This document shows, piece after piece, positions 1 through 63,894 of a stretch of 64,000 bases of DNA. The DNA lies in contig JAFZWI010000002.1 of the NCBI GenBank assembly GCA_017617355.1, positions 19,640 to 83,639 on the forward strand, written 5' to 3'. The notes under the pieces are model-generated. The model was not told the DNA's origin, ran no database searches, and was given only the letters and a program-made list of their open reading frames with translations. The position numbers and the translations under genes were made by a program. The DNA comes from Salinivirgaceae bacterium. GTDB taxonomy: Bacteria; Bacteroidota; Bacteroidia; Bacteroidales; SZUA-534. How positions within the stretch are numbered: the stretch's first letter is position 1; each line of letters opens with the position of its first letter.

Positions 1-122
1 GTCAGTTTTTCGGCCTGGCGCACAATGGCACCCACCTGACGGATTGACGCGGTTTTTATGTCGTTGATTTCCAAATCTTTCATTATCCCGTCGATAACCG
101 ACGGCTCGATTACTGTCTTCAT
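1..122 (-). CDS. partial CDS (about 40 N-terminal codons; gene continues left of the window), function not assignable
   Basis: ATG at 122..120 on the minus strand, open to the window edge (MKTVIEPSVIDGIMKDLEINDIKTASIRQVGAIVRQAEKL...). It lies directly downstream of purA on the same strand. Confidence 0.35.
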   Translation of the reverse strand, partial: MKTVIEPSVIDGIMKDLEINDIKTASIRQVGAIVRQAEKL

Positions 123-209
123 TTTATTTAGTTATTGGGTATTGGGTGTTAGGTGTTGGTAGAGACGTGCCGTGCGCGTCTCTACAGAACCTTTCACCTT
201 ACACATTAC

Positions 210-1472
210 TTACCTTTCAATCGTCGCCGTGCGGTCGGGACCGACAGAAACGATTTTTACAGGCACACCTGTCTCATTTTCAATGAATTTGATATAGTCG
301 GCAAACTCGCGCGGGAACTGGCTCTCGCTGGTGATTTTGGTCAAATCGGACTTCCAACCTTTGAACTCTTTGTAAACGGGCTCAATCTTCACGCTGTCGA
401 TATCGAACGGAAAATCGGTAGTCGTCTGACCATCAATCTTATAGGCGGTGCAGATTTTGATTGTGTCGAAATCGTCGAGCACGTCGCTCTTCATCATAAT
501 CAACTGCGTAACGCCGTTAATCATAATGCTGTAGCGAAGCGCAACAAGGTCGAGCCAACCGCAGCGGCGTTTGCGGCCCGTGACGGCGCCGTACTCGTGG
601 CCGAGTTGGCAGATTGTTTCGCCCACATTATCAAACAGTTCGGTCGGAAACGGACCTGCGCCAACACGTGTGCAGTATGCTTTGAAAATGCCATAGACGT
701 TGCCAATCTTGTTAGGGCCAATACCCAAACCTGTGCAAGCGCCCGCACATATTGTGTTTGAAGAAGTTACGAACGGATACGAGCCGAAATCGATATCGAG
801 CATTGTGCCCTGCGCGCCTTCGGCTAAAACCGATTTGCCGTCGGCAAGTAGTTTATTTACAACGTGTTCGCTATCCACAAAGGTGAATTTCTTCAGATAC
901 TCGATTCCCGCAAACCAATCGGCCTCGAGCGACTTCAAATCGTACTCGAAATTGAGCGATTTGAGAATCTGTTCGTGACGGGCTACTGCGGCAGCGTATT
1001 TCTCTTTGAAATTCAGCAAAATATCGCCCACGCGCACGCCATTGCGACTCACTTTGTCGGTGTAGGTTGGGCCGATTCCCTTGCCTGTGGTGCCCACTTT
1101 GTTCTTGCCTTTGGCGGCCTCGTAGGCGGCGTCGAGCAAGCGGTGGGTTGGCAGTATCAAGTGCGCCTTTTTCGATATGTAAAGGCGTTTGGTAAGGTCG
1201 TGTCCCGACTGTGCAAGTGCCTCGGCTTCAGCCTTGAACAACGCAGGGTCGAGCACCACGCCGTTGCCAATGATATTCACTTTGTCGCCCTGGAAAATTC
1301 CCGACGGAATCGACCTCAAAACATATTTTTCGCCGTTAAATTCAAGGGTGTGCCCCGCGTTCGGGCCGCCTTGAAAACGAGTTACCACGTCATATTTCGG
1401 GGTGAGCACGTCAACAACCTTGCCTTTACCCTCGTCGCCCCATTGCAATCCTAACAATACGTCAACTTTCAT
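210..1472 (-). CDS. purA: adenylosuccinate synthetase
   Basis: ORF 210..1493 carries QWGDEGKGK (P-loop), GGPNAGHT, TTGKGIGPTY and GAVTGRKRRCGW, which are PurA hallmarks along the whole length. The probable start is MKVDVLL at 1472. Confidence 0.95.
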   Translation of the reverse strand: MKVDVLLGLQWGDEGKGKVVDVLTPKYDVVTRFQGGPNAGHTLEFNGEKYVLRSIPSGIFQGDKVNIIGNGVVLDPALFKAEAEALAQSGHDLTKRLYISKKAHLILPTHRLLDAAYEAAKGKNKVGTTGKGIGPTYTDKVSRNGVRVGDILLNFKEKYAAAVARHEQILKSLNFEYDLKSLEADWFAGIEYLKKFTFVDSEHVVNKLLADGKSVLAEGAQGTMLDIDFGSYPFVTSSNTICAGACTGLGIGPNKIGNVYGIFKAYCTRVGAGPFPTELFDNVGETICQLGHEYGAVTGRKRRCGWLDLVALRYSIMINGVTQLIMMKSDVLDDFDTIKICTAYKIDGQTTTDFPFDIDSVKIEPVYKEFKGWKSDLTKITSESQFPREFADYIKFIENETGVPVKIVSVGPDRTATIER

Positions 1473-1601
1473 CTGTCTGTAATTTTGCGGCATTCACTGC
1501 CGATTTTTCTAATAAATTGTTATTAAACACTTTGCGGTTTTTAGGCCGCAAAAAAAGCGTTCGAAGGTAATAAAAAAGTTGATTGGTTGAGACTGTTTTG
1601 G

Positions 1602-2438
1602 CTATCTCTTTCGCAAAACGGCCATCGCCGCGTAGTGCCGCACCGTGAAACTGTCGGGGGCGATACGGTTGAGCAAGGCGCGATGCTCGGTGTCCCACTG
1701 CGCAAGCTCGTCGAGGCCAAGCGACGCCCCCACTCCACGGCAGGCTCGCATCCGTCCGTGCCACGATTCACGCGTGAACGGTACATCAAGCTCATACTCC
1801 TCGTGATGCTCAAGCTCGAAGAATTTGTAGGCCACATCGGGAATGGCAATCGGGTGCATTGTCTCGCGCGCCCCCGACCACTGCGGACTGTACTTCAACA
1901 CAAGCTCCTCGCTGGCGCCGGCTATCGGGTCGGCAAAAGGCAACCACGCCATATAAAGTATCAGTAAGCGATCATTATCTTTCAGCAATTCAGCCAAATG
2001 CGGCACTACTCGCTCGTGGTCGAAATACCAGAAACACTGGCAAGCGGTTATCACATCGAAACTTGCTAGCGGAAATTCGATTTGCTCCGCTGAAACTGCC
2101 TGAAAATCAATATTCATACCACTATCAGCGGCCATCCGACGAGCCTCGGCAATTTGCTCGGGCGAGATGTCGGTACCTGTCCACTCCGCCCCAAAATGGT
2201 ACATATTCCGCGGCAAAACGCCTGTGCCTGTACCCAAATCGAGAACCCGTTGCCCGGCCACGCAAAGCCCGCGGTCGGCAATCTTTTGGTAGAAGATGTC
2301 GGGATAAATATCGCGGAAACGGGCGTACTCCTTCGAGGTCCTCCCCCAGTCGAAAGCCCGGCCTGCGTCGATACGGTTGTCGGTAATCTGCATAATGTCA
2401 GCTAATTGTTGCGCAAAGATATGGTTATATTCGGTCAA
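1602..2438 (-). CDS. class I SAM-dependent methyltransferase
   Basis: 278-aa ORF with motif I VLDLGTGTGV and the downstream acidic/aromatic pattern of Methyltransf_11/25-type enzymes. The start codon (TTG at 2438) is uncertain. Confidence 0.8.
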   Translation of the reverse strand: MTEYNHIFAQQLADIMQITDNRIDAGRAFDWGRTSKEYARFRDIYPDIFYQKIADRGLCVAGQRVLDLGTGTGVLPRNMYHFGAEWTGTDISPEQIAEARRMAADSGMNIDFQAVSAEQIEFPLASFDVITACQCFWYFDHERVVPHLAELLKDNDRLLILYMAWLPFADPIAGASEELVLKYSPQWSGARETMHPIAIPDVAYKFFELEHHEEYELDVPFTRESWHGRMRACRGVGASLGLDELAQWDTEHRALLNRIAPDSFTVRHYAAMAVLRKR

Positions 2439-2535
2439 TCGGCAGAGATTTTATTTGCCGAAAAAATTTTTCGTTTTGTGTTTGCGAAAGTCAATATTGG
2501 TTGTACCTTTGCACCGCTTTTTCAGGAAAGCTCTT

Positions 2536-2608
2536 GAATCAGTAGCTCAGTAGGTAGAGCACATCCCTTTTAAGGATGGGGTCCTGGGTTCGAACCCCAG
2601 CTGGTTCA
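2536..2608 (+). tRNA. tRNA-Lys: tRNA-Lys (anticodon UUU)
   Basis: Hand-folded 73-nt cloverleaf. Acceptor GAATCAG/CTGGTTC (one G-U pair); D arm GCTC-AGTAGGTA-GAGC; anticodon stem CATCC/GGATG with loop CTTTTAA. Variable loop GGGTC; T arm CTGGG-TTCGAAC-CCCAG; discriminator A; no encoded CCA. Confidence 0.9.
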
Positions 2609-2642
2609 CTTTTTTTGTGTCCATACTTTTCCATACAATTTT

Positions 2643-3040: not shown

Positions 3041-4267
3041 ATGGGCAGACCGAGAATAAACAAAGATGAGAAGGTCGCGCAAAAGGCGCGTTTTGATTTC
3101 ATTCACTCGCGGCGCGGCGATGACAAGCTGGAGCTGCTAATCAATTTCGGCTATTCGACGCGCCGGTATGTGGCGACCAAAATAGAGATTCCCAAGTCGG
3201 CGTGGAACGCCGAAGAACAGTCGGTGGTTAAACAATACCCGAACAGCGACAAGATTAACCTCTATCTGCTGCAACTCAAAAGCAGATACGAGGCCGTGGA
3301 GCTTGACTGTATGACAAGGGGTATTCCCTTCAACCCCGAAGCGCTCAATATGGGGCTGAAAATCGGGAGCGCCGGCGTTGTGGCGTACTGCCGCGAGAAA
3401 ATCGACATCGACGTAAAGCGAGAGCTTTACGCGCCGGGGACGGTAAAGCACTACACGACATTCTGCAACGTGCTGGAGCGATTTGAAAAGCAGATGGGCG
3501 AGCTGCTGACTTTCGACATTCTCAACAAGGATATGCTGATTCAGCTTGACATATTCTACAAGAGCATATACACCAGCTTTGAAACGGTGCGCAAGCAGTT
3601 TACATATCTGCACAAGTTTTGCAAAACGGCCAAAGAGGACGGGCTTTTGACGCACGACCCTTTCGCCGGATTCAAGATTGAAAGAGGCCGCGAAACAAAG
3701 CAGACAATGCGCGACGCGCTGAAAGCCGACGAACTGCGGCGGCTGGAGCAGATAGCCGCCGACGGCTGGCTCGACGATAACACACAGCTTGTTTTAGACC
3801 GCTTCCTGCTGTCGTGCTACACCGGCTTGCGCATATCGGACAACGCCGACTTGCGGCGTACCGACATCACCTACGACGAGGACGGACATCTTGTAATCGA
3901 CCGTATCACGCTGAAAAACAAGATTAGGGTATTGCTGCCGCTGCACTACCTTTTCGACGGCAAGGGCGAGGCCATTGTCAACAAGTATATGGAGCGATAC
4001 AAGCTGAACCAGTACGTGTTTCCGCAGCTGTCCGACCAAAAGACGAACTCAAAGCTGAAGCTGATTGCGGCGGCGGCGCAGATTCGCAACTTGGGGCTGT
4101 CGTTTCACATCGCGCGGCACACTTGCGCAACAATGCTGGCTGAAAAGACCGGCAACCCATATACCATTATGCAGCTGCTCGGTCATTCCGACATCAAAAT
4201 ATCAATGACCTATATACATAACAGCTACGCGACGGTGGTAAACAGCCTCGCCGGTGTCAAGTGGTAG
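3041..4267 (+). CDS. int: tyrosine site-specific recombinase (phage integrase)
   Basis: 408 aa. The C-terminal catalytic pattern is LRISD..., HIARHTCAT (HxxR) and LLGHSDIKISMTYIH (H...Y). The N-terminal SAM-like/arm-binding region is typical of Bacteroidota integrases. Confidence 0.92.
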   Translation: MGRPRINKDEKVAQKARFDFIHSRRGDDKLELLINFGYSTRRYVATKIEIPKSAWNAEEQSVVKQYPNSDKINLYLLQLKSRYEAVELDCMTRGIPFNPEALNMGLKIGSAGVVAYCREKIDIDVKRELYAPGTVKHYTTFCNVLERFEKQMGELLTFDILNKDMLIQLDIFYKSIYTSFETVRKQFTYLHKFCKTAKEDGLLTHDPFAGFKIERGRETKQTMRDALKADELRRLEQIAADGWLDDNTQLVLDRFLLSCYTGLRISDNADLRRTDITYDEDGHLVIDRITLKNKIRVLLPLHYLFDGKGEAIVNKYMERYKLNQYVFPQLSDQKTNSKLKLIAAAAQIRNLGLSFHIARHTCATMLAEKTGNPYTIMQLLGHSDIKISMTYIHNSYATVVNSLAGVKW

Positions 4268-4782: not shown

Positions 4783-5607
4783 TTAAAGGTTTTGATTTTT
4801 GTAAAACTCTTGTATATACGCCTCTTTTTCGGGAGTGCGCTCGTTAATCATAAAGTAATAGTCTATTTTATTTGCAAAGCCATACGACGGACACACGCGC
4901 TCACATTTGTATTTTAGAAACTCTGCCAGCGTCTTGGTCATATAGTGCGCGATGTAATTGCGGTAGCCGTCAAGAACGGCTTGCGGCTCAAGCAGGCGCA
5001 GCGCGTCGTAGCTTCGGCAGCAAAAATCGCTGTCAATCATAGTTGGTATGATATAAGCCGTAACGTCGTGCAGTTTTTCTTGAAAAGAGTGCGGAGTTAC
5101 GGCTCGCGCCTCACAGCTGCAACGCATTGTCGTTTTGTATAGCTGGCTTAACCATAAGTTGTTTTTAATAACGTGCAGGCGCTCGTACACCGGCACCGAT
5201 TCGTCGCCGACAATAATCTCATCGTCGCCAAACAGCCGCCAGTTCAGTATGACAAAATTTATCCAGCTCGGTACGGGCTGCAAAAACGTTTTTATGTTGC
5301 CCGATTCAAGATGGACAAACTCGTCAACATCGATAAACGAACACCAGTCCGTTTCGCCGGCGTGTCGCAACAACCAATCATCATATACTTGAACATTTGG
5401 AATAGCCGGAAACTCGCGTCCGCGCCAATCTTCTATCACAACGCTATCGCGCAGTTGCGGATTTATGGCCTCGGCAAGCAAGGGGTAGTCGGCATCGTTA
5501 TTATCGTAAATGTATATGCGGTCGTAGCCTATTCCCAAGTGGTAGGCTATCCAGTCGTTAATGTATGCGTTTTCGCGCTTCGCCAATGTGCAAATAGATA
5601 CTATCAT
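4783..5607 (-). CDS. GT-A fold glycosyltransferase (GT92/GT2-like)
   Basis: 274 aa. The N-terminus VSICTLAKRENAYINDWIAYHLGIGYDRIYIYDNN and the DxD-type motif FIDVDEF fit the DUF23/Glyco_transf_92-like pattern. The region looks more AT-rich than the neighbouring fibre genes. Confidence 0.65.
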   Translation of the reverse strand: MIVSICTLAKRENAYINDWIAYHLGIGYDRIYIYDNNDADYPLLAEAINPQLRDSVVIEDWRGREFPAIPNVQVYDDWLLRHAGETDWCSFIDVDEFVHLESGNIKTFLQPVPSWINFVILNWRLFGDDEIIVGDESVPVYERLHVIKNNLWLSQLYKTTMRCSCEARAVTPHSFQEKLHDVTAYIIPTMIDSDFCCRSYDALRLLEPQAVLDGYRNYIAHYMTKTLAEFLKYKCERVCPSYGFANKIDYYFMINERTPEKEAYIQEFYKNQNL

Positions 5608-12269: not shown

Positions 12270-13688
12270 TTAAGAAAGTGGAATACTTACTTGGAATTTG
12301 GGCGACGCGCCAGCGGCAAAATCGCCAGTTGTGAAATATAGATTGTAGCCCGTCAGCGTGATACCGATATTCGACGGCGATACAAATGATTGTGAGCCAA
12401 TCTTCGGGTCGATTACTGGGTTGTCCGATTGTTTTACGCTGACCGAAGCGCTCCTTGAAAGCACAAATAAATGAGCTGGCGCTCCAGTGTTATTATTGAC
12501 TGTAATCTCGCCGTTAGGATTGGCCGTAAGGCGCGTAAGTTTATCGTTGTCCCATAATATACTATCAATATTTTTCGCACTCGCCCAGCCGTAGTAAGCG
12601 GTATATTTCTTTGTTATCGTTCTCTTTGCACTCGATTTTGTGCATTTAATGCCGATATATTTTCCGCTGGTTGGTGTGTAGTCAATGCTTTCTGCCTCTA
12701 TTGCGCCACTTGAAGCGGTTAGCGATTTGGTATATACACCAATAGAGGGATTCGTCCAGCCGTTCCCCACAAGGTTAGCGTGATTATCAGGCTGCACTTT
12801 TGTATCGTCGAATTTTACCGTAAGCGTAACGGACAACGTTTTGTTCTCGGCTTGGTCTGCCCAAAAACTTACATTATCATTTGGCGATGTCGATATAGTG
12901 AGCTTGGTTAATGCTTCCTCGCTCAATTCTGCCCTCATTTTATCTTGAACCCAAACAATTTCGGGGCTTTCGTGGCTTATGTCGCCAATATCGCCCTTGT
13001 CGCCCTTGTCGCCCTTGTCGCCCTTGTCGCCCTTGTCGCCCTTTGCACCGAAGCCGCCAGTCGCGCCTTTCTCGCCTCTTGGAAGAACAAAATCGAGCGT
13101 TATATACACATCGCCATTCGGTTGTGTGGTGGTAGTGGCGGTTACGCTGGGAGTTGTACCAGCGGCGGCGGCGCTAATTGTGCCGACTTGAAAGATTGGC
13201 GTTTTACCCGATTCGCCCTTGATAACCGAAGCGTCGGCAAGGTTGCAGAACCAAGCGAAACCGTCGAGGCTCTTGCCGCTGGCCGTGCGGTTGCGGTCGC
13301 GAAGATAGACATCGGCGGTTGGCGGCGTGGTGGTTGTGTCAACCACTGCGACCATTTTGCCGTCGGCCACATCGTTGGCGTGTTGCTGCATTTCGGCGAT
13401 TGTGCCATATACGTTAGAAATAGCAAAGCCCTCGCCACTTGCGCCGTCGCGACCGTTGCGCAGGTCGAATGTTGTTTGAGTGCCGTCGGTAAGAAGCAGG
13501 GTTACACGAATTTTAGCTCCGTCCTCAATGAGTTCGTGGCTCACCGAGCGAACACCAACGCCTTTTTCGCCTCTCAACAGCGACGAATCGAACAACCGTT
13601 CCTTTCCGGCAGAGGTTATGCCTAAAAGCCTCGCGCCCTCAATCAGCGATTGTGCCGCTTGTATTTGGTTTAATACTACTTTATCCAT
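12270..13688 (-). CDS. collagen-like fibre protein
   Basis: 472 aa with GEKGATGGFGAKGDKGDKGDKGDKGDKGDIGD in the middle and a beta-rich C-terminal half. It lies first in the distal fibre cluster. Confidence 0.75.
   Translation of the reverse strand: MDKVVLNQIQAAQSLIEGARLLGITSAGKERLFDSSLLRGEKGVGVRSVSHELIEDGAKIRVTLLLTDGTQTTFDLRNGRDGASGEGFAISNVYGTIAEMQQHANDVADGKMVAVVDTTTTPPTADVYLRDRNRTASGKSLDGFAWFCNLADASVIKGESGKTPIFQVGTISAAAAGTTPSVTATTTTQPNGDVYITLDFVLPRGEKGATGGFGAKGDKGDKGDKGDKGDKGDIGDISHESPEIVWVQDKMRAELSEEALTKLTISTSPNDNVSFWADQAENKTLSVTLTVKFDDTKVQPDNHANLVGNGWTNPSIGVYTKSLTASSGAIEAESIDYTPTSGKYIGIKCTKSSAKRTITKKYTAYYGWASAKNIDSILWDNDKLTRLTANPNGEITVNNNTGAPAHLFVLSRSASVSVKQSDNPVIDPKIGSQSFVSPSNIGITLTGYNLYFTTGDFAAGASPKFQVSIPLS
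12991..13042. repeat. 9-bp microsatellite (TCGCCCTTG)x5 encoding (GDK)n
   Basis: ATCGCCCTTGTCGCCCTTGTCGCCCTTGTCGCCCTTGTCGCCCTTGTCGCCCTTTGC read directly, in frame within 12270..13688. Confidence 0.9.
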
Positions 13689-14083: not shown

Positions 14084-14650
14084 TCAGTCGATTATATCTA
14101 TTTCGCTAACGCCCACTATTTTAGCGTTAGGGTTGGCGTTACGCACGGCTAACTGGCCGGTGTAACGTTTGAATGTGAAAAACAAAAATTTGCGTTTGCG
14201 CTGATAACGCACAATCGTTAGGCTATCGCGTGTTTCGATGTTTACCGCATTGCCCAGCATTTGAAAATCTATCCACTCGTCGTGATATTCGTATTTCTCA
14301 ACTGGCTCGTTTGTTGCCGAATCGGTTATTATAATCGTATCAACCAAAAATTTATATTCGGTTTTTTGCTCAATCTTCTGCACCGATTGCAGATGTTTGA
14401 GCTTTACGCCAAGCGATTTTACCTCGTCGGCCAACTGGCTATTGTCGGCTTTCAACTCGCTGATTGTAACCGACTGGCGTTTGGTACGTGCAGCCAGCAC
14501 GCTGTCGGCGGTCATATAATACTCAATATCGCCTTTCAACGCGCTGATGTTTCCGCGCAGACGGTCGCTCTCACCGCACTGGTGAAAATTAAACAACACG
14601 CTGATTATTAGCGCAAAAAATGATAATATGGTTAGATAGATTCGTGTCAT
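14084..14650 (-). CDS. N-terminally anchored membrane protein (lysis/spanin-like candidate)
   Basis: I place the start at MTRIYLTILSFFALIISVLF (ATG 14650..14648), which gives an ATGA overlap with the stop of the upstream gene. One TM segment, then a coiled-coil-like segment and a beta-rich C-terminus. Confidence 0.65.
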   Translation of the reverse strand: MTRIYLTILSFFALIISVLFNFHQCGESDRLRGNISALKGDIEYYMTADSVLAARTKRQSVTISELKADNSQLADEVKSLGVKLKHLQSVQKIEQKTEYKFLVDTIIITDSATNEPVEKYEYHDEWIDFQMLGNAVNIETRDSLTIVRYQRKRKFLFFTFKRYTGQLAVRNANPNAKIVGVSEIDIID

Positions 14651-15009
14651 ATTTTGAAAGTTCTTATTAAATTCAAACTTTTGGCTTTTGCCTTTAATTC
14701 CTTGTCCTTCCACGCATATACACCTATGTAGCTGTTCCTTAATTTTTCTTCATCGCTGGGAATATGAACAACGGAAAGCGCATTGGATATGATTTGGTAT
14801 TTGCCATTTTCGGTTTCTGCGTTACGGAATTGTTCCACTATGTCGGGTACTTTTGCTCCGCTGCTTAACGTAATAGACGCAACAACTGCGGCTTCCGATT
14901 CAATCTGCGCCTTTTCCACTTTCTTTCGTTTGTAGATTCGATAACCTACGAAGCCAGCTACGCCCAGCCCTAACACTGAAAGTCCGATTATTAGTCCTTT
15001 GCTTTCCAT
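14647..15009 (-). CDS. small N-terminally anchored membrane protein
   Basis: Start taken at MESKGLIIGLSVLGLGVAGFVGYRIY, because the longer ORF start at 15066 abuts the terminator hairpin. One TM segment. Confidence 0.6.
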   Translation of the reverse strand: MESKGLIIGLSVLGLGVAGFVGYRIYKRKKVEKAQIESEAAVVASITLSSGAKVPDIVEQFRNAETENGKYQIISNALSVVHIPSDEEKLRNSYIGVYAWKDKELKAKAKSLNLIRTFKI

Positions 15010-15067
15010 AACACTATATTTTTCTCTTTCGTTCTCAATCTTTAGTCTTTGACAAGGGCTATGCACA

Positions 15068-15108
15068 ATAAAAAACCGGCAAAGTCCGTGGTTTTGGATT
15101 TTGCCGGT
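15068..15108 (-). terminator. intrinsic terminator after the GNAT module
   Basis: On the minus strand, ACCGGCAAA (15108..15100) pairs with TTTGCCGGT (15083..15075) and is followed by TTTTTTATT. Confidence 0.65.
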
Positions 15109-15133
15109 TTATGGTTGGTTATGTCGAATCGTG

Positions 15134-15655
15134 CTATTTGCTCAATTCGGGGATAATTTTGTGTAGGTCGTAATACATTGGAATAGTATCATTATCTTCA
15201 CTGTTGTCGATATTTTGAAAATCGAACCCCATTTTTGCGTAAAATTTCACTGCGCCCTTGTAAGCGTCAACGGTTATAAACCTTGCCGTTATCAAGTTGT
15301 CGCCAAACGCCAAAGTGCTTTTTATTGTGTCGATAATCTTGCTGCCTATGTGTAAAAGCCGATAATCGTCGCCAATGGCAAACCGCCCGATTTTTACCGC
15401 AGGATAGGTTTTGTAACGCTTTCCGCTTGGTAAATCAACATCTATGTCCTCGATAGGCACTGAATCACACGACAAGGCAAAATATCCGACAAAATTGCCG
15501 TCGGCAAAAATTAAATATGTGGTGGCAATGAGGTGTTTTTGGTGCTTTTTGGCGCGGTTGCGCAAAAACTCTCTCAACTCCTTGTCCGAAATAACGAGGC
15601 TTTTCAAGAAAGACGGCAAGTGGGTGTCGTTCAGTTTTTCAATGGTTATTTCCAT
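15134..15655 (-). CDS. GNAT-family acetyltransferase, TacT/AtaT/KacT-like toxin candidate
   Basis: 173 aa with YPAVKIGRFAIGDDYRLLHIGSKII...ARFITVDAYKGAVKFYAKMGFDF...DTIPMYYDL. This is the pattern of TA-type GNAT toxins. It is a paralogue of 63319..63894. Confidence 0.7.
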   Translation of the reverse strand: MEITIEKLNDTHLPSFLKSLVISDKELREFLRNRAKKHQKHLIATTYLIFADGNFVGYFALSCDSVPIEDIDVDLPSGKRYKTYPAVKIGRFAIGDDYRLLHIGSKIIDTIKSTLAFGDNLITARFITVDAYKGAVKFYAKMGFDFQNIDNSEDNDTIPMYYDLHKIIPELSK

Positions 15656-15801
15656 ATTACCGACTTGGCCGTTTCTTTGATTTGCTTAATGCGTTGCGCC
15701 GATTCGCGCTTAACATTCTCAATTTTCCGCATAAAAACCTTTGCGCTTTCGCCCGTAATGGGTTGCGTTGGTGTAATATCGGTTCTACAATAAGCTGCCA
15801 T
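15646..15801 (-). CDS. small ORF (51 aa) overlapping the GNAT start; antitoxin candidate
   Basis: Not in the ORF track because it is under 60 aa. Hand-translated: MAAYCRTDITPTQPITGESAKVFMRKIENVKRESAQRIKQIKETAKSVIWK. Its stop overlaps the GNAT ATG by 10 nt. It shares TP-x-I-[ST]-G-x-[SD]-A-x-x-F with the small ORF at 63151. Confidence 0.55.
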   Translation of the reverse strand: MAAYCRTDITPTQPITGESAKVFMRKIENVKRESAQRIKQIKETAKSVIWK

Positions 15802-15834
15802 ATCAGTACGTTTTAAAAACGCACAAATATAACA

Positions 15835-15842
15835 CTAAAACC
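15835..15842 (-). promoter_or_regulatory. Bacteroidota -7 promoter box (TAnnTTTG) for the small-ORF/GNAT module
   Basis: Minus-strand TATATTTG lies about 33 nt upstream of the ATG at 15801. Confidence 0.4.
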
Positions 15843-17329: not shown

Positions 17330-20308
17330 TTATTGAATTATATCGGTTACTTCTCCTCTTCCGTTTATGACTTGATAGGTTATTACCTTGCTCCAATAGT
17401 GAGCATTATGCACGCTGAATTCAAATCCGACCGAAGAAATGTTAATTATTGAGTTTGCATTGCCGGTGTATGTATCGGCTGTATAAAGCCGTATATAATC
17501 AGGCCAATATTCTCTCGATTCTATATTGTGGTATGTTATTATCAATGTATCTCCATCTTCAACTTGAATGCCGTTATCAATAAGAATTTCAGCTGCAAAT
17601 ACATTCCCGGAAATGTTTAAGCGATACGTATTACCTTGAGGTATTTCCGCAACTGGCTCTTGATTAGCTAATGCGTTAGTAATAGCTGCCGAAACATATT
17701 GTTGCACAAAGTCGGCAACCGCTTTTGGCGTAACTGCAATACCAAATTCGGTGTTAACGTTGCCACGGATTTGGTCGGTGAGAATTACGTGTCCGAGAGT
17801 TCCGTCGGTAGCTCTTACTGCCGCGTGTGTGCCATCAGCTTTTAAACAATAGCCCTTTGCTTGAGTTATCTTTTCTTCCAATGCGATGTCGGCAGCTGAA
17901 CGTTTATTTGCCTCTACTTCGTCGGCGGCTTTGCGAGCCGATATTTCGGCCATAAGCCGCCCAGCAACCGTAATCATTTCAAACATTTCGGCAAATGAGG
18001 CAGGATAATTGTATAGACTGCGGTAGATAACTGAAGCACGACGGATAAACGAGCCTTGAGAAATGCGACCAATCGGTTCATCTTTCGCAACATCTATAAA
18101 ATTTATTTTTTCAAAATACTCGACCATATCTAATGCCGTACTGTTGTCGGCAATGCGATAAATAAAATCATTGAGTTTTACAACGTTTAGCGCGTCGAAT
18201 ATGGAGTTTGCTCCAAAATTCTCTGCGACGTTAAGTTGCACAGCATTGGTTGTAAGCCACTCGGTTAGCCGGTCGGGAGTTAAATTCTTACGGATTGTAC
18301 CTTCGTAGTAAGATTCCGTATAGTAAAAATTCCACACACTCCTTAACTCGTCATATATCTTAATTCGTCGATAATAACTATATTCGAAATGAGGGTCATA
18401 GATTGGAGTTTCAATGGAAGTAATATTTGTCGGGTCTAAATTCTTGCCCAGCACATCGTAAACCGTTACATCAGCGGTGATTTGATAATAATTACCAAGC
18501 CATTCAACAATTTCGCCGGCGGCGTAGTTATAATGGCTACCAAATTCAAACGGCGCGACTTTTTGCAATAGAGCAGGCAGGTCAACAGCCAATTTGCAGC
18601 GGTAAAGATTATCGTCATTGACAATACATTCCCCAACGGCATACGACTTTTCAATGTCCGCACTATCGCCGGATTCTTCAAAGTTGGCTTCAAATATGTC
18701 GGGGTCGGCGTAATCGTCAATACAGCGGTATAAATTGCCTTGTCGTGTTACAAGGTCGCCAATGGTGTATGTTGCCGTCGGGTCAAACTCTGCCGCAAGT
18801 GTGGTAATGTTTGATTTAGTGGATACGGCTTTCGGTGTAGCGGCAACGTGGCTGTCTGCGCCAAGTTCGGGCTGATAGTCCGAATCCGACAACATTACGT
18901 GCGCCGATACAGCGCCAGTGGCTTCGTCTGCGGCGTGGCTGTCGATGTTGGTTTGCAACGTAGTGTCGGCGGTCTCCCTTGCCTCGGCTTCGCTGTCGAT
19001 GTTGGTTTGCAACGTAGTGTCGGCGGTCTCCCTTGCCTCGGCTTCGCTGTCGATGTTGGTTTGCAACGTAGTGTCGGCGGTTTCTCGCGCGTAGGCTTCG
19101 TCAGCCAGCGCGCCGGAAAGTGCCTTGTTCAACTCCGCAACGGCTTTCGGAGTTGCGGCTGTGCGTTTGTCAATATCACTATTATCGTCAGCGTAGCTGT
19201 CGGATAGACGGACAAAACCATACCTTTCGGCGTTGGCGGCTAATGAAACAATCTCAACCATTCGGCTGTGGCCGTTGTTTATCAGCCTTAAATAATATGG
19301 CTGTTCAACAACATTTGAGGTAGCTTCCAGTAAGTCGTATTCATACCCCTTGCTATCGCGCACAAAACGAGTTCCTCGTGGCAAGTCGCGGTGCATAAAA
19401 AGCCATTTTTCGGCAAAATCATCGCCAACAGCCACATTGAATTTTATGCCAGTTTCGACGGTATTGCCAGCTTCTCGTTCAACTCTGCTGAAATCCATAA
19501 TGCGCTTAACGCTACAAGGGTGCAGTTGCAACTCCCATTCAGTGTTTTCGTCGGTTTGACCAGTTATTGAATAGACATTCACTTTGCCGTCGGAATATTC
19601 GGTTAATGTGCGGCGATAATTGCCATTACCCATCAAAACAACCTCAAGACCAAAAGCTCCGCTGTTGTCGGGGTAAGCTCCGTGGTAGAAGCCGCTTTGG
19701 GTTAGAGCTTTCATTTTGTTTTTCAGTGCGAGTTTTTTATCGCTGACGCTGGAATTTTGCTCGTTCTCTTCGGCTGTTAAAGTCAATTCTTCAGGGTAGA
19801 AGAATCCACTCTCAACATTCTGCGTTCCGTCAAAAGCGTGGCCTTGTATTAGTTTTGTTTCTTTCAAACGGTCGGCCTCGACAGACGATTCAACCTGCAC
19901 TGCCTGGATAGCATATTTTTTCCACTTGGTGCGCTTCGGAACAATAGGATTTCCGTCGTTGTCGAAATTCGGGTTAGGGTCGGGGTGTTCGCTGTCGGGA
20001 ATGTTCTCGTATGGATTTTCAAGGCGGTCTTTTTGCGGATAAATCAAACCGTTGGATTCTGCTTCGTCGTAAACGTAGAAAGCACGTTCCTTTCTAACCC
20101 AAACAAACATACCGTCATAGGCTACATTGCTGCGTTCTTCGGTTATATCATCGCCACTTATAATAAAAAGGTCGCTTTCCTTGTTAACCACAAGGCGCAC
20201 GTCAATAGGAGCGCGTAACGCCGTTAAATAAAGCGCACCAAAGCCAACCGTAGGCTGGTCTTTAAAAATGGATTTATCTTTCGATGTTTTTTCTACTGTC
20301 TCTGCCAT
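17330..20308 (-). CDS. large fibre protein (992 aa)
   Basis: Three copies of the fibre motif x-L-[ST]-D...[AV]-[AV]-TPKAV (FVRLSDSY...TAATPKAVAEL; HVMLSDSD...VAATPKAVSTK; HVILTDQI...IAVTPKAVADF). There are also three 18-aa tandem repeats, ARETADTTLQTNIDSEAE. Confidence 0.75.
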   Translation of the reverse strand: MAETVEKTSKDKSIFKDQPTVGFGALYLTALRAPIDVRLVVNKESDLFIISGDDITEERSNVAYDGMFVWVRKERAFYVYDEAESNGLIYPQKDRLENPYENIPDSEHPDPNPNFDNDGNPIVPKRTKWKKYAIQAVQVESSVEADRLKETKLIQGHAFDGTQNVESGFFYPEELTLTAEENEQNSSVSDKKLALKNKMKALTQSGFYHGAYPDNSGAFGLEVVLMGNGNYRRTLTEYSDGKVNVYSITGQTDENTEWELQLHPCSVKRIMDFSRVEREAGNTVETGIKFNVAVGDDFAEKWLFMHRDLPRGTRFVRDSKGYEYDLLEATSNVVEQPYYLRLINNGHSRMVEIVSLAANAERYGFVRLSDSYADDNSDIDKRTAATPKAVAELNKALSGALADEAYARETADTTLQTNIDSEAEARETADTTLQTNIDSEAEARETADTTLQTNIDSHAADEATGAVSAHVMLSDSDYQPELGADSHVAATPKAVSTKSNITTLAAEFDPTATYTIGDLVTRQGNLYRCIDDYADPDIFEANFEESGDSADIEKSYAVGECIVNDDNLYRCKLAVDLPALLQKVAPFEFGSHYNYAAGEIVEWLGNYYQITADVTVYDVLGKNLDPTNITSIETPIYDPHFEYSYYRRIKIYDELRSVWNFYYTESYYEGTIRKNLTPDRLTEWLTTNAVQLNVAENFGANSIFDALNVVKLNDFIYRIADNSTALDMVEYFEKINFIDVAKDEPIGRISQGSFIRRASVIYRSLYNYPASFAEMFEMITVAGRLMAEISARKAADEVEANKRSAADIALEEKITQAKGYCLKADGTHAAVRATDGTLGHVILTDQIRGNVNTEFGIAVTPKAVADFVQQYVSAAITNALANQEPVAEIPQGNTYRLNISGNVFAAEILIDNGIQVEDGDTLIITYHNIESREYWPDYIRLYTADTYTGNANSIINISSVGFEFSVHNAHYWSKVITYQVINGRGEVTDIIQ
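18938..19090. repeat. 54-bp in-frame tandem repeat x3
   Basis: GCTGTCGATGTTGGTTTGCAACGTAGTGTCGGCGGTCTCCCTTGCCTCGGCTTC is repeated at 18938 and 18992, with a diverged copy at 19046. Confidence 0.9.
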
Positions 20309-63095: not shown

Positions 63096-63150
63096 GAAGC
63101 GGCAATTAAATTTTTATTACCTTTGCCGCTGAATTTTAAAACACTACACT

Positions 63151-63315
63151 ATGATAACCGCAGATTTTTTTAGCGACACGCCTGCAATATCGGGCAAGGA
63201 CGCAGAAAGGTTTTTAAAGGCAATGGAAGCCCCCAAGCCGCTACCGAAAGAGCAACTGGCGGAAATGCGTCGTGCGTACCAAAATTTTTTATCGAGAAGA
63301 GTTGTAAAAAAGTGA
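63151..63315 (+). CDS. small ORF (54 aa), antitoxin candidate for the second GNAT
   Basis: Not in the track. Hand-translated: MITADFFSDTPAISGKDAERFLKAMEAPKPLPKEQLAEMRRAYQNFLSRRVVKK. It ends 3 nt before the GNAT ATG and resembles the small ORF at 15646..15801. Confidence 0.55.
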   Translation: MITADFFSDTPAISGKDAERFLKAMEAPKPLPKEQLAEMRRAYQNFLSRRVVKK

Positions 63316-63318
63316 TTT

Positions 63319-63894
63319 ATGGTAGGGTCTATTGACGATTTCGATTGGCGTTGGGATATTTTGAATGAGAATATTTCAGTTGATGATTTTGTGTGTGAAA
63401 AACACCACGAATTTGAAGATTTCCTCAAAAATGCGGCTCTACTATACCAAGAAGAACGATTGGCTATTACGTATGTGATTCTTGTTGGCAACAAACTGAT
63501 AGCGTACTACTCGCTTGCAACCGACAAGGTTGTGATGAATGACAGCGATAAAAATCTTTGGAAGCGGCTATCGAAGAAAATACCTTTTGACAAAAGGCGC
63601 AGAGGGTACCCTGCATTAAAGCTATGCCAATTAGCGGTTGATGATAATTATGCACATAATGGTTTTGGAAAGCAAATAATAACACAAGTTATGCTTTCCG
63701 CTTCGGACTTTAAAGTAGGTTGTCGATTTATAACTGTTGACGCATTACCCGAAGCCGAAGATTTTTATAAGAAAATGGGCTTTACGCGGCTATCCGGCAC
63801 ACCTAATCCGAAAAACGACACTATCCCAATGTATTTTGATTTGGGCAGAATTGAGGCGCAGCCCGAAAACCAAAACGAGGAAACCAATCAATGA
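63319..63894 (+). CDS. GNAT-family acetyltransferase, TacT/AtaT-like toxin candidate (paralogue of 15134..15655)
   Basis: 191 aa with YPALKLCQLAVDDNYAHNGFGKQII...CRFITVDALPEAEDFYKKMGFTRL...DTIPMYFDL. Confidence 0.7.
   Translation: MVGSIDDFDWRWDILNENISVDDFVCEKHHEFEDFLKNAALLYQEERLAITYVILVGNKLIAYYSLATDKVVMNDSDKNLWKRLSKKIPFDKRRRGYPALKLCQLAVDDNYAHNGFGKQIITQVMLSASDFKVGCRFITVDALPEAEDFYKKMGFTRLSGTPNPKNDTIPMYFDLGRIEAQPENQNEETNQ

Follow-up and report, generated by a model that had tools for sequence, protein, structure and literature searches.

The GNAT/DUF1778 toxin-antitoxin (TA) systems, among them TacAT1-3, AtaRT, AtaRT2, KacAT, ItaRT and GmvAT, pair an acetyltransferase toxin with an antitoxin whose gene lies upstream of the toxin gene and abuts or overlaps it. 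Each of the solved antitoxins (AtaR, KacA and TacA) has about 90 amino acids (aa), arranged as an N-terminal ribbon-helix-helix (RHH) domain and a C-terminal tail. These systems are the textbook case of tRNA-acetylating toxins, and the RHH domain accounts for their regulation, which in KacAT takes the form of conditional cooperativity (PMC6698736). A 'true TA clade' of GNATs associated with DUF1778 was defined by Bikmetov et al. (2022, Nucleic Acids Research; PMC9177977), who also noted that some related acetyltransferases outside this clade lie in TA-like bicistronic loci and speculated on unidentified antitoxins or other functions for them. Here we analysed 64,000 nucleotides (nt) of a Salinivirgaceae bacterium (assembly GCA_017617355.1, contig JAFZWI010000002.1, positions 19,640 to 83,639 of the forward strand; the window), which carries a prophage. 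Within the prophage, two minus-strand genes encode a 51-aa small protein (MAAYCRTDITPTQPITGESAKVFMRKIENVKRESAQRIKQIKETAKSVIWK, 15646..15801) and a 173-aa GNAT acetyltransferase (15134..15655). We think it fairly probable that they form a self-transcribed TA-like module, with the GNAT as putative tRNA-acetylating toxin and the small protein as putative mini-antitoxin without an RHH domain.

The locus shares with the GNAT/DUF1778 systems the GNAT itself, which is homologous to their toxins and has their fold and catalytic Tyr, and the position of the small gene directly upstream of the acetyltransferase gene. It also shares the C-terminal toxin-neutralising segment of the antitoxins, with which the small protein aligns remotely. 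Unlike the antitoxins of about 90 aa, the partner proteins found here are 51-54 aa long, lack the DNA-binding and dimerisation domain and have no Pfam DUF1778 match. The GNAT also differs from the solved toxins, to which it is about 14-24% identical, in belonging to a separate family with invariant YPAVKIGR and FITVDA motifs. The TA-like loci of PMC9177977 resemble this one in that an acetyltransferase follows a short open reading frame (ORF) without a predictable DNA-binding domain. The short ORFs described there are divergent and unassigned, whereas the partners found here form one conserved, near-obligately linked family related to the DUF1778 tail. Apart from this passing remark, we found no paper characterising the GNAT with its partner of about 52 aa. 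The 'GNAT-XAT' pair on the cfiA element of Bacteroides fragilis (PMC9138018) was considered and set aside as different, as it joins a GNAT to a second acetyltransferase.

The 173-aa protein scored above the Pfam cut-offs for both Acetyltransf_10 and Acetyltransf_1, and in PHROGs it matched phrog_1758, annotated as acetyltransferase (E-value (E) 4e-26). As a single sequence it gave weak matches in the Protein Data Bank (PDB), with 7f37_B (E 0.004) and 9ilr_A (E 0.011). Its database homologues were 32-40% identical to it and had invariant Y-P-A-V-K-I-G and F-I-T-V-D-A...F-Y motifs. When the profile of the GNAT family was compared with all PDB sequences, the solved GNAT toxins ranked first (E 2e-15 to 2e-9), and the first generic GNAT followed at E 3.5e-6. 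The matched toxin chains were those of GmvT (9ilr), AtaT (6gts, 6ajn, 6ajm, 6gtq, 6gtp and 7chd), KacT (5zgn and 5xun), AtaT2 (7f37) and the TacT family (TacT1-3; 6g96, 7f36, 7ak8, 5fvj and 7ak7).

An AlphaFold2 (AF2) model of the 173-aa GNAT was obtained with a predicted local distance difference test score (pLDDT) of 83 and a predicted template modelling score (pTM) of 0.79. Searched with Foldseek, the model gave GNAT toxins as its top 37 matches (template modelling score, TM, 0.6-0.77), all ahead of the first ordinary GNAT. The residues F138-Y139 (FYAKMGF) are invariant in the family, and in the alignment Y139 corresponds to the Tyr of FYKSLGF in AtaT and FYERFGF in GmvT. The equivalent Tyr was mutated in inactive crystal forms of AtaT (Y144F) and KacT (Y145F). 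Together the profile and the fold support a distinct GNAT family (YPAVKIGR...FITVDA...FY) with a specific relationship to toxins of the TacT/AtaT/KacT group. A preliminary description, made from the DNA sequence alone, had assigned the protein to this type from the pattern YPAVKIGRFAIGDD...ARFITVDAYKGAVKFYAKMGF; the pattern is present in the 173-aa protein and the assignment agrees with our searches.

The small protein is not an isolated oddity. We found that it belongs to a large family of proteins of about 52 aa, with the consensus MARPIKETPvLtGkDAeRF...M.N.kP.S.EE......YE..KsIATF. Hidden Markov models (HMMs) of the GNAT and partner families were run on 91 loci from genomes and viruses, in every frame, and a partner gene was found directly upstream in 92 of the 95 GNAT homologues; two of the others were at contig ends and one was unpaired. 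The distance from the partner stop to the GNAT start was mostly -3 to +13 nt (69 pairs). With the window sequence left out of its construction, the partner HMM still retrieved the 51-aa ORF at E 2.6e-8 from the 1173 ORFs of the window, and the 51-aa protein starts with M-A like the rest of the family. These comparisons establish the small ORF as a genuine gene that is conserved.

At 90% identity the partner family comprised 1773 clusters. The best 120 of these were 50-92 aa long, contained no Pfam domain and were named 'hypothetical protein', except for two evident misnamings. Neither the 51-aa protein nor seven members of the partner family matched Pfam (including DUF1778, PF08681) or NCBIfam, and a PDB profile search with the partner family returned chance-level matches only, the best being a SAM lyase at E 0.26. 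Against PHROGs, the 51-aa protein matched phrog_19614 weakly, and consensus-like members of the family gave weak matches to phrog_16712 and phrog_13585, all three of 'unknown function'. The AF2 model of the 51-aa protein (pLDDT 82) had residues 1-17 unstructured and residues 18-50 in one helix. It contained no beta-strand and no strand-helix-helix arrangement, hence no RHH, so that the earlier remark on a partner much shorter than the DUF1778 antitoxins and without RHH pattern was borne out.

By eye, the partner pattern TPvLtGkDAeRF..aM.N.kP.S.. resembles the antitoxin tail RVILNEESWTRVMDALSNPPSPG.... For a profile comparison, a deep DUF1778 alignment was assembled from 113 diverse representatives (clustered at 50% identity) and AtaR, KacA and TacA, giving 116 sequences. 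With hhalign, the partner family aligned to it with a score of 27.8 (P 2.7e-5, probability 74%), and partner positions 10-44 were placed on AtaR 53-86 at a sequence identity of about 18-21%. In this register the nearly invariant L, D-A, F, M and N of the partner correspond to L56, S60-W61, V64, L68 and N70 of AtaR. The reversed partner alignment scored 11.8 (P 0.088, probability 0.6%). In 200 column permutations the mean score was 10.1 (standard deviation (sd) 2.25) and the maximum 17.7, and none equalled 27.8.

The segment concerned is the one with which the described antitoxins bind their toxins. Residues 52-56 of the KacA tail form beta-B, which pairs with a strand of KacT; alpha-C (57-70), a PPAP linker and alpha-D (75-86) follow. 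W61, V64, A67 and I68 are packed against KacT, and R77 is required for neutralisation (PMC6698736). The helix packed on the toxin is amphipathic, and the tail blocks both acetyl-CoA binding and dimerisation of KacT (PMC6698736). Tails have also been crystallised alone with the toxin, as in 6gtq_C (AtaR 43-88) and 7ak9_C (a TacA-family C-terminal peptide). As the partner aligns with this C-terminal toxin-binding segment, it reads as a DUF1778 antitoxin cut down to its neutralising tail. We therefore hold, with moderate confidence because there was no direct PDB or Pfam match, that the partner is a stand-alone remote homologue of the DUF1778 neutralising tail from which the RHH domain is absent. 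A tail-only antitoxin would not be very surprising, given that binding of isolated tails to these toxins is already established.

The arrangement of the two genes was as previously described, both in the list of ORFs and in the sequence: the start of the GNAT gene overlaps the 51-aa ORF by 10 nt, and the common stretch is ATGGAAATAA. The spacer upstream of the 51-aa ORF is 94 nt long and AT-rich (GC 0.29). It contains the sole minus-strand match here to TAnnTTTG, the Bacteroidota-type -7 promoter box; this match, TATATTTG, lies at 15824..15831, 22 nt 5' of the ATG. The preliminary description had correctly noted such a box upstream of the pair but had placed it at 15835..15842, which is 11 nt off. 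Across the whole window the motif occurred 47 times against 60 expected, and because it is not enriched a single occurrence by itself says little. The box becomes credible through its conservation at a similar distance in homologous modules: in 52 of 67 distinct modules TAnnTTTG lay no more than 80 nt ahead of the small gene, in most cases at a distance of 19-36 nt from its ATG, as compared to 5.5% of random 80-nt windows from the same loci.

At the other end, a hairpin (AAACCGGCAAA...UUUGCCGGUUU) followed by UUUAUU starts 24 nt past the GNAT stop codon, at about 15067..15110 on the minus strand. Its folding energy was -26.6 kcal/mol (z = -5.8), equalled by none of 200 shuffles, and it resembles an intrinsic terminator, in line with the terminator described earlier for the pair. 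The stretch from the promoter box to the terminator holds these two genes only. At the level of motifs, this is evidence for an independently transcribed, moron-like unit, and a moron layout had likewise been recognised in the preliminary description; the flanking prophage genes are tail-fibre-like. The AT-richness that had also been pointed out was found to be marginal. The GC content of the module (0.424) was at the 16th percentile of equal-sized windows (mean 0.464, sd 0.042), but the neighbouring orf120 (GC 0.41) and orf142 (GC 0.42) are as AT-rich. Because the GC of the module is no lower than that of these genes the argument is weak, and we dropped AT-richness as a sign of foreign origin.

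The same prophage carries a second, diverged and paralogous pair on the plus strand (63151..63894), which the preliminary description had missed. It consists of a 54-aa small protein (MITADFFSDTPAISGKDAERFLKAMEAPKPLPKEQLAEMRRAYQNFLSRRVVKK, 63151..63315) and a 191-aa GNAT (63319..63894) whose gene begins 3 nt after the 54-aa gene, and a TAnnTTTG motif, TACCTTTG, lies at 63118..63125 (plus strand), 25 nt upstream of the pair. The 54-aa protein fits the partner-family HMM more closely than the 51-aa protein does (E 2e-13 vs 2.6e-8). The 191-aa GNAT matched Acetyltransf_10 (E 5.7e-10) and phrog_1758 (E 1.7e-35) and was 37% identical to the 173-aa GNAT (E 1e-29). It reads YPALKLCQLAV where the family form is YPAVKIGRLAV. 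Both GNATs of the window thus fall in phrog_1758, a group of phage GNATs whose PHROGs annotation, 'acetyltransferase', carries no toxin label. The second module closes the plus-strand replication block, at the junction with a minus-strand block. Salmonella carries several TacAT pairs that do not cross-react, and the two diverged pairs within one element recall these.

In a scan of one genome per species, at least 566 homologues of the GNAT family were found; among the matches listed, most were from Bacteroidota, with some from Fibrobacterota, Nitrospirota, Verrucomicrobiota and others. IMG/VR added eleven further relatives. Two copies of the pair were present in several genomes, for example in Parabacteroides gordonii. 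In Acinetobacter phage YMC/09/02/B1251 (L106, 1327..2037), a 49-aa ORF (MKAPAMLVTPTFGVDSSQKIL...) is followed by a GNAT, and this partner matched phrog_35294 strongly (E 7e-37). In Bacteroides phage BS-TP1 (L105, 2008..3037), the partner is buried in gp121, an over-long 167-aa 'hypothetical protein' call that precedes gp120, an 'acetyltransferase'; the locus adjoins the integrase.

Some variation in gene content was observed among these loci. Two tandem partner genes preceded one GNAT in some genomes (L032, 2506..2662; L063, 2522..2678), and one locus (L024) contained an extra partner gene (3777..3927) and an extra GNAT (4952..5465) that are not adjacent to each other. At the locus of a 37%-identical homologue, P0002 (L008, 5075..5150), the module lies near HTH_17 and ORF6N genes and a tRNA-like gene on the opposite strand, a setting that suggests another integrated element.

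If the pair is a TA-like module, transcription would probably start at the Bacteroidota-type promoter and end at the hairpin, as the two motifs suggest. Translation of the 51-aa protein and the GNAT may be coupled via their overlap. By analogy with the solved toxins, the GNAT would use acetyl-CoA to acetylate aminoacyl-tRNA on its amino group and thereby stop translation. The small protein would correspond to the beta-B/alpha-C/linker/alpha-D tail of the DUF1778 antitoxins and, judged from this homology, would bind the toxin in a similar way. Without an RHH domain it could not repress its operon as TacA, AtaR and KacA do, and we infer constitutive expression from the module's own promoter, with the activity of the toxin governed by the stability of the small protein. 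Antitoxins without a DNA-binding domain are known from tripartite systems such as omega-epsilon-zeta, where the operon contains a separate regulator gene. The small protein proposed here would, like that antitoxin, be purely neutralising, but the module has no such extra gene. More speculatively, the presence of two diverged copies points to insulated pairs with a function in maintaining the prophage or excluding other phages.

Only tentatively do we extend this to the whole set of relatives. The 'MARPIKETP...' proteins of about 52 aa and their YPAVKIGR/FITVDA GNATs could constitute a large, unnamed TA family with a tail-only antitoxin, without autoregulation by the antitoxin, and with several insulated copies in prophages for maintenance or exclusion. 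Such a widespread tail-only version would show control of GNAT toxins without autoregulation, and the partners would be minimal natural inhibitor peptides for this class of toxins. Naming the partner family would give a role to abundant 'hypothetical' genes for 52-aa proteins in gut Bacteroidales and their prophages, in which TA biology has been little studied. Both units of the prophage are likely expressed in the lysogen and could affect the stability of the prophage or its susceptibility to other phages. The finding in any case defines an abundant family that can be tested.

Several observations count against a TA module, and they are weighed here along with the explanations that they favour. 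Toxicity, neutralisation, the tRNA substrate and the biological role are all points that we infer. Although of TA ancestry, the GNAT could instead be an ordinary acetyltransferase whose substrate comes from the phage or the host or is a small molecule; the small protein would then regulate it, act as its chaperone or be what it acetylates. GNATs with short upstream ORFs were placed outside the true TA clade, and other functions were raised for GNATs outside the DUF1778 clade (PMC9177977); the public annotation of the proteins studied here is 'acetyltransferase' only, and the partner is missing the domain for autoregulation that type II antitoxins typically have. In addition, the acetyl-CoA motif of the 173-aa GNAT is R-L-L-H-I-G, in which His replaces the first Gly, a feature shared by part of the homologues, and the activity of this GNAT may be reduced. 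However, both the sequence and the fold comparisons place only tRNA-acetylating toxins among its nearest relatives, well apart from the generic GNATs, and the catalytic Tyr is invariant. The partner resembles the toxin-blocking part of the DUF1778 antitoxins, and the locus has the hallmarks of TA systems in its gene order, near-obligate pairing, tight coupling, multiple copies and prophage location. On balance we regard a GNAT that is not a toxin as unlikely. The small protein might also be an antitoxin of a new type unrelated to DUF1778, as had first been suggested, its likeness to the tail arising from convergence or from the composition of short amphipathic helices. The similarity to DUF1778 is indeed remote, both in hhalign probability and in identity, and Pfam and NCBIfam gave no DUF1778 match; in the PDB profile search with the partner family no DUF1778 chain appeared at E <= 10. 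Against a shallow DUF1778 alignment (effective number of sequences, Neff, 1.9) the score was 14.0 (P 0.03, probability 1.6%), placing the partner on the expected tail region, though not significantly. Within the partner family the 51-aa protein is divergent, and BLASTP detected no similarity between it and the 54-aa protein of the second module. Against an unrelated origin stands an alignment that is confined to the toxin-binding segment and colinear over 34 positions (strand, helix, N-x-(P/k)-P linker, second helix), with a score more than 4 sd beyond the maximum of the column permutations. As the cognate enzymes are homologous, it is simpler to assume that the partners too descend from a common ancestor; we find a separate origin improbable, and the suggestion of an undescribed antitoxin type is probably not correct.

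The remaining alternative is one of biological role, and the proposed mechanism could hold alongside it. The main function could be anti-phage defence or superinfection exclusion, in which an infecting phage would free the toxin and the infection would abort, with maintenance of the prophage being secondary. Other TA systems that target tRNA or translation act in phage defence. Prophage-borne, independently transcribed units have the layout expected for expression in a lysogen, and the presence of two diverged copies within one prophage also fits such a role. On the other hand, most of the homologues are on chromosomal contigs, and no PADLOC-DB v2 defence model matched the GNAT or the small protein at E <= 1, a result that also belongs with the points against a TA module given above. 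We consider it rather doubtful that defence is the main role of the TA-like module.

The prophage sits on a 185-kb metagenomic scaffold. Positions 1..2500 of the window are host DNA, with the genes for adenylosuccinate synthetase (purA, 210..1493) and a methyltransferase (1602..2438), and these are followed at the left end of the prophage by tRNA-Lys (2536..2609) and a tyrosine integrase (3041..4267). This order identifies the window as a prophage integrated at tRNA-Lys. At 90% identity or more, the host purA protein falls in a cluster with proteins from metagenome-assembled genomes that NCBI assigns to Salinivirgaceae (Bacteroidales). The module is surrounded by minus-strand genes with tail-fibre matches (proteins of 472, 576 and 992 aa), which makes its earlier placement in the late arm a fair one. 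The earlier view that the module was inserted there stays hypothetical, because two IMG/VR scans using the flanking proteins turned up no phage relative without it.

The site itself differs among related contigs. In two variant contigs (L004 and L006) the unit from promoter to terminator differs from that of the window by 3 substitutions, 2 of them synonymous in the GNAT gene and 1 between the GNAT stop and the hairpin, and the flanking genes are 80-92% identical. The adjacent orf120 (14647..15009, minus strand), which lies just downstream of the module in the window, is absent from these contigs, and the module terminator there directly precedes a DUF6549 gene. In the window, orf120 is called as 120 aa, and a 139-aa ORF with a GTG start reaches 15066. 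The site between the tail genes is thus variable, and the pattern fits a cassette in a variable spot. The small ORF was identical in the seven other contigs compared, and the GNAT showed 2 synonymous differences; the variation among the contigs was too low for the ratio of nonsynonymous to synonymous substitution rates (dN/dS) of the small ORF to be informative.

Some further features were observed in the tail-fibre-like genes and near the integrase. The gene for the 992-aa protein contains three tandem 54-nt repeats (18931..19100, minus strand) encoding ETADTTLQTNIDSEAEAR; another variant contig (L002) appears to differ in the copy number of this repeat, and its alignment to the window breaks there. 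The 472-aa protein (12270..13688, minus strand) has a collagen-like run, GDKGDKGDKGDKGDKGDIGD, within a region whose GC content reaches 0.58. A family-2 glycosyltransferase gene (4783..5607, minus strand) adjoins the integrase and is a possible lysogenic-conversion gene.

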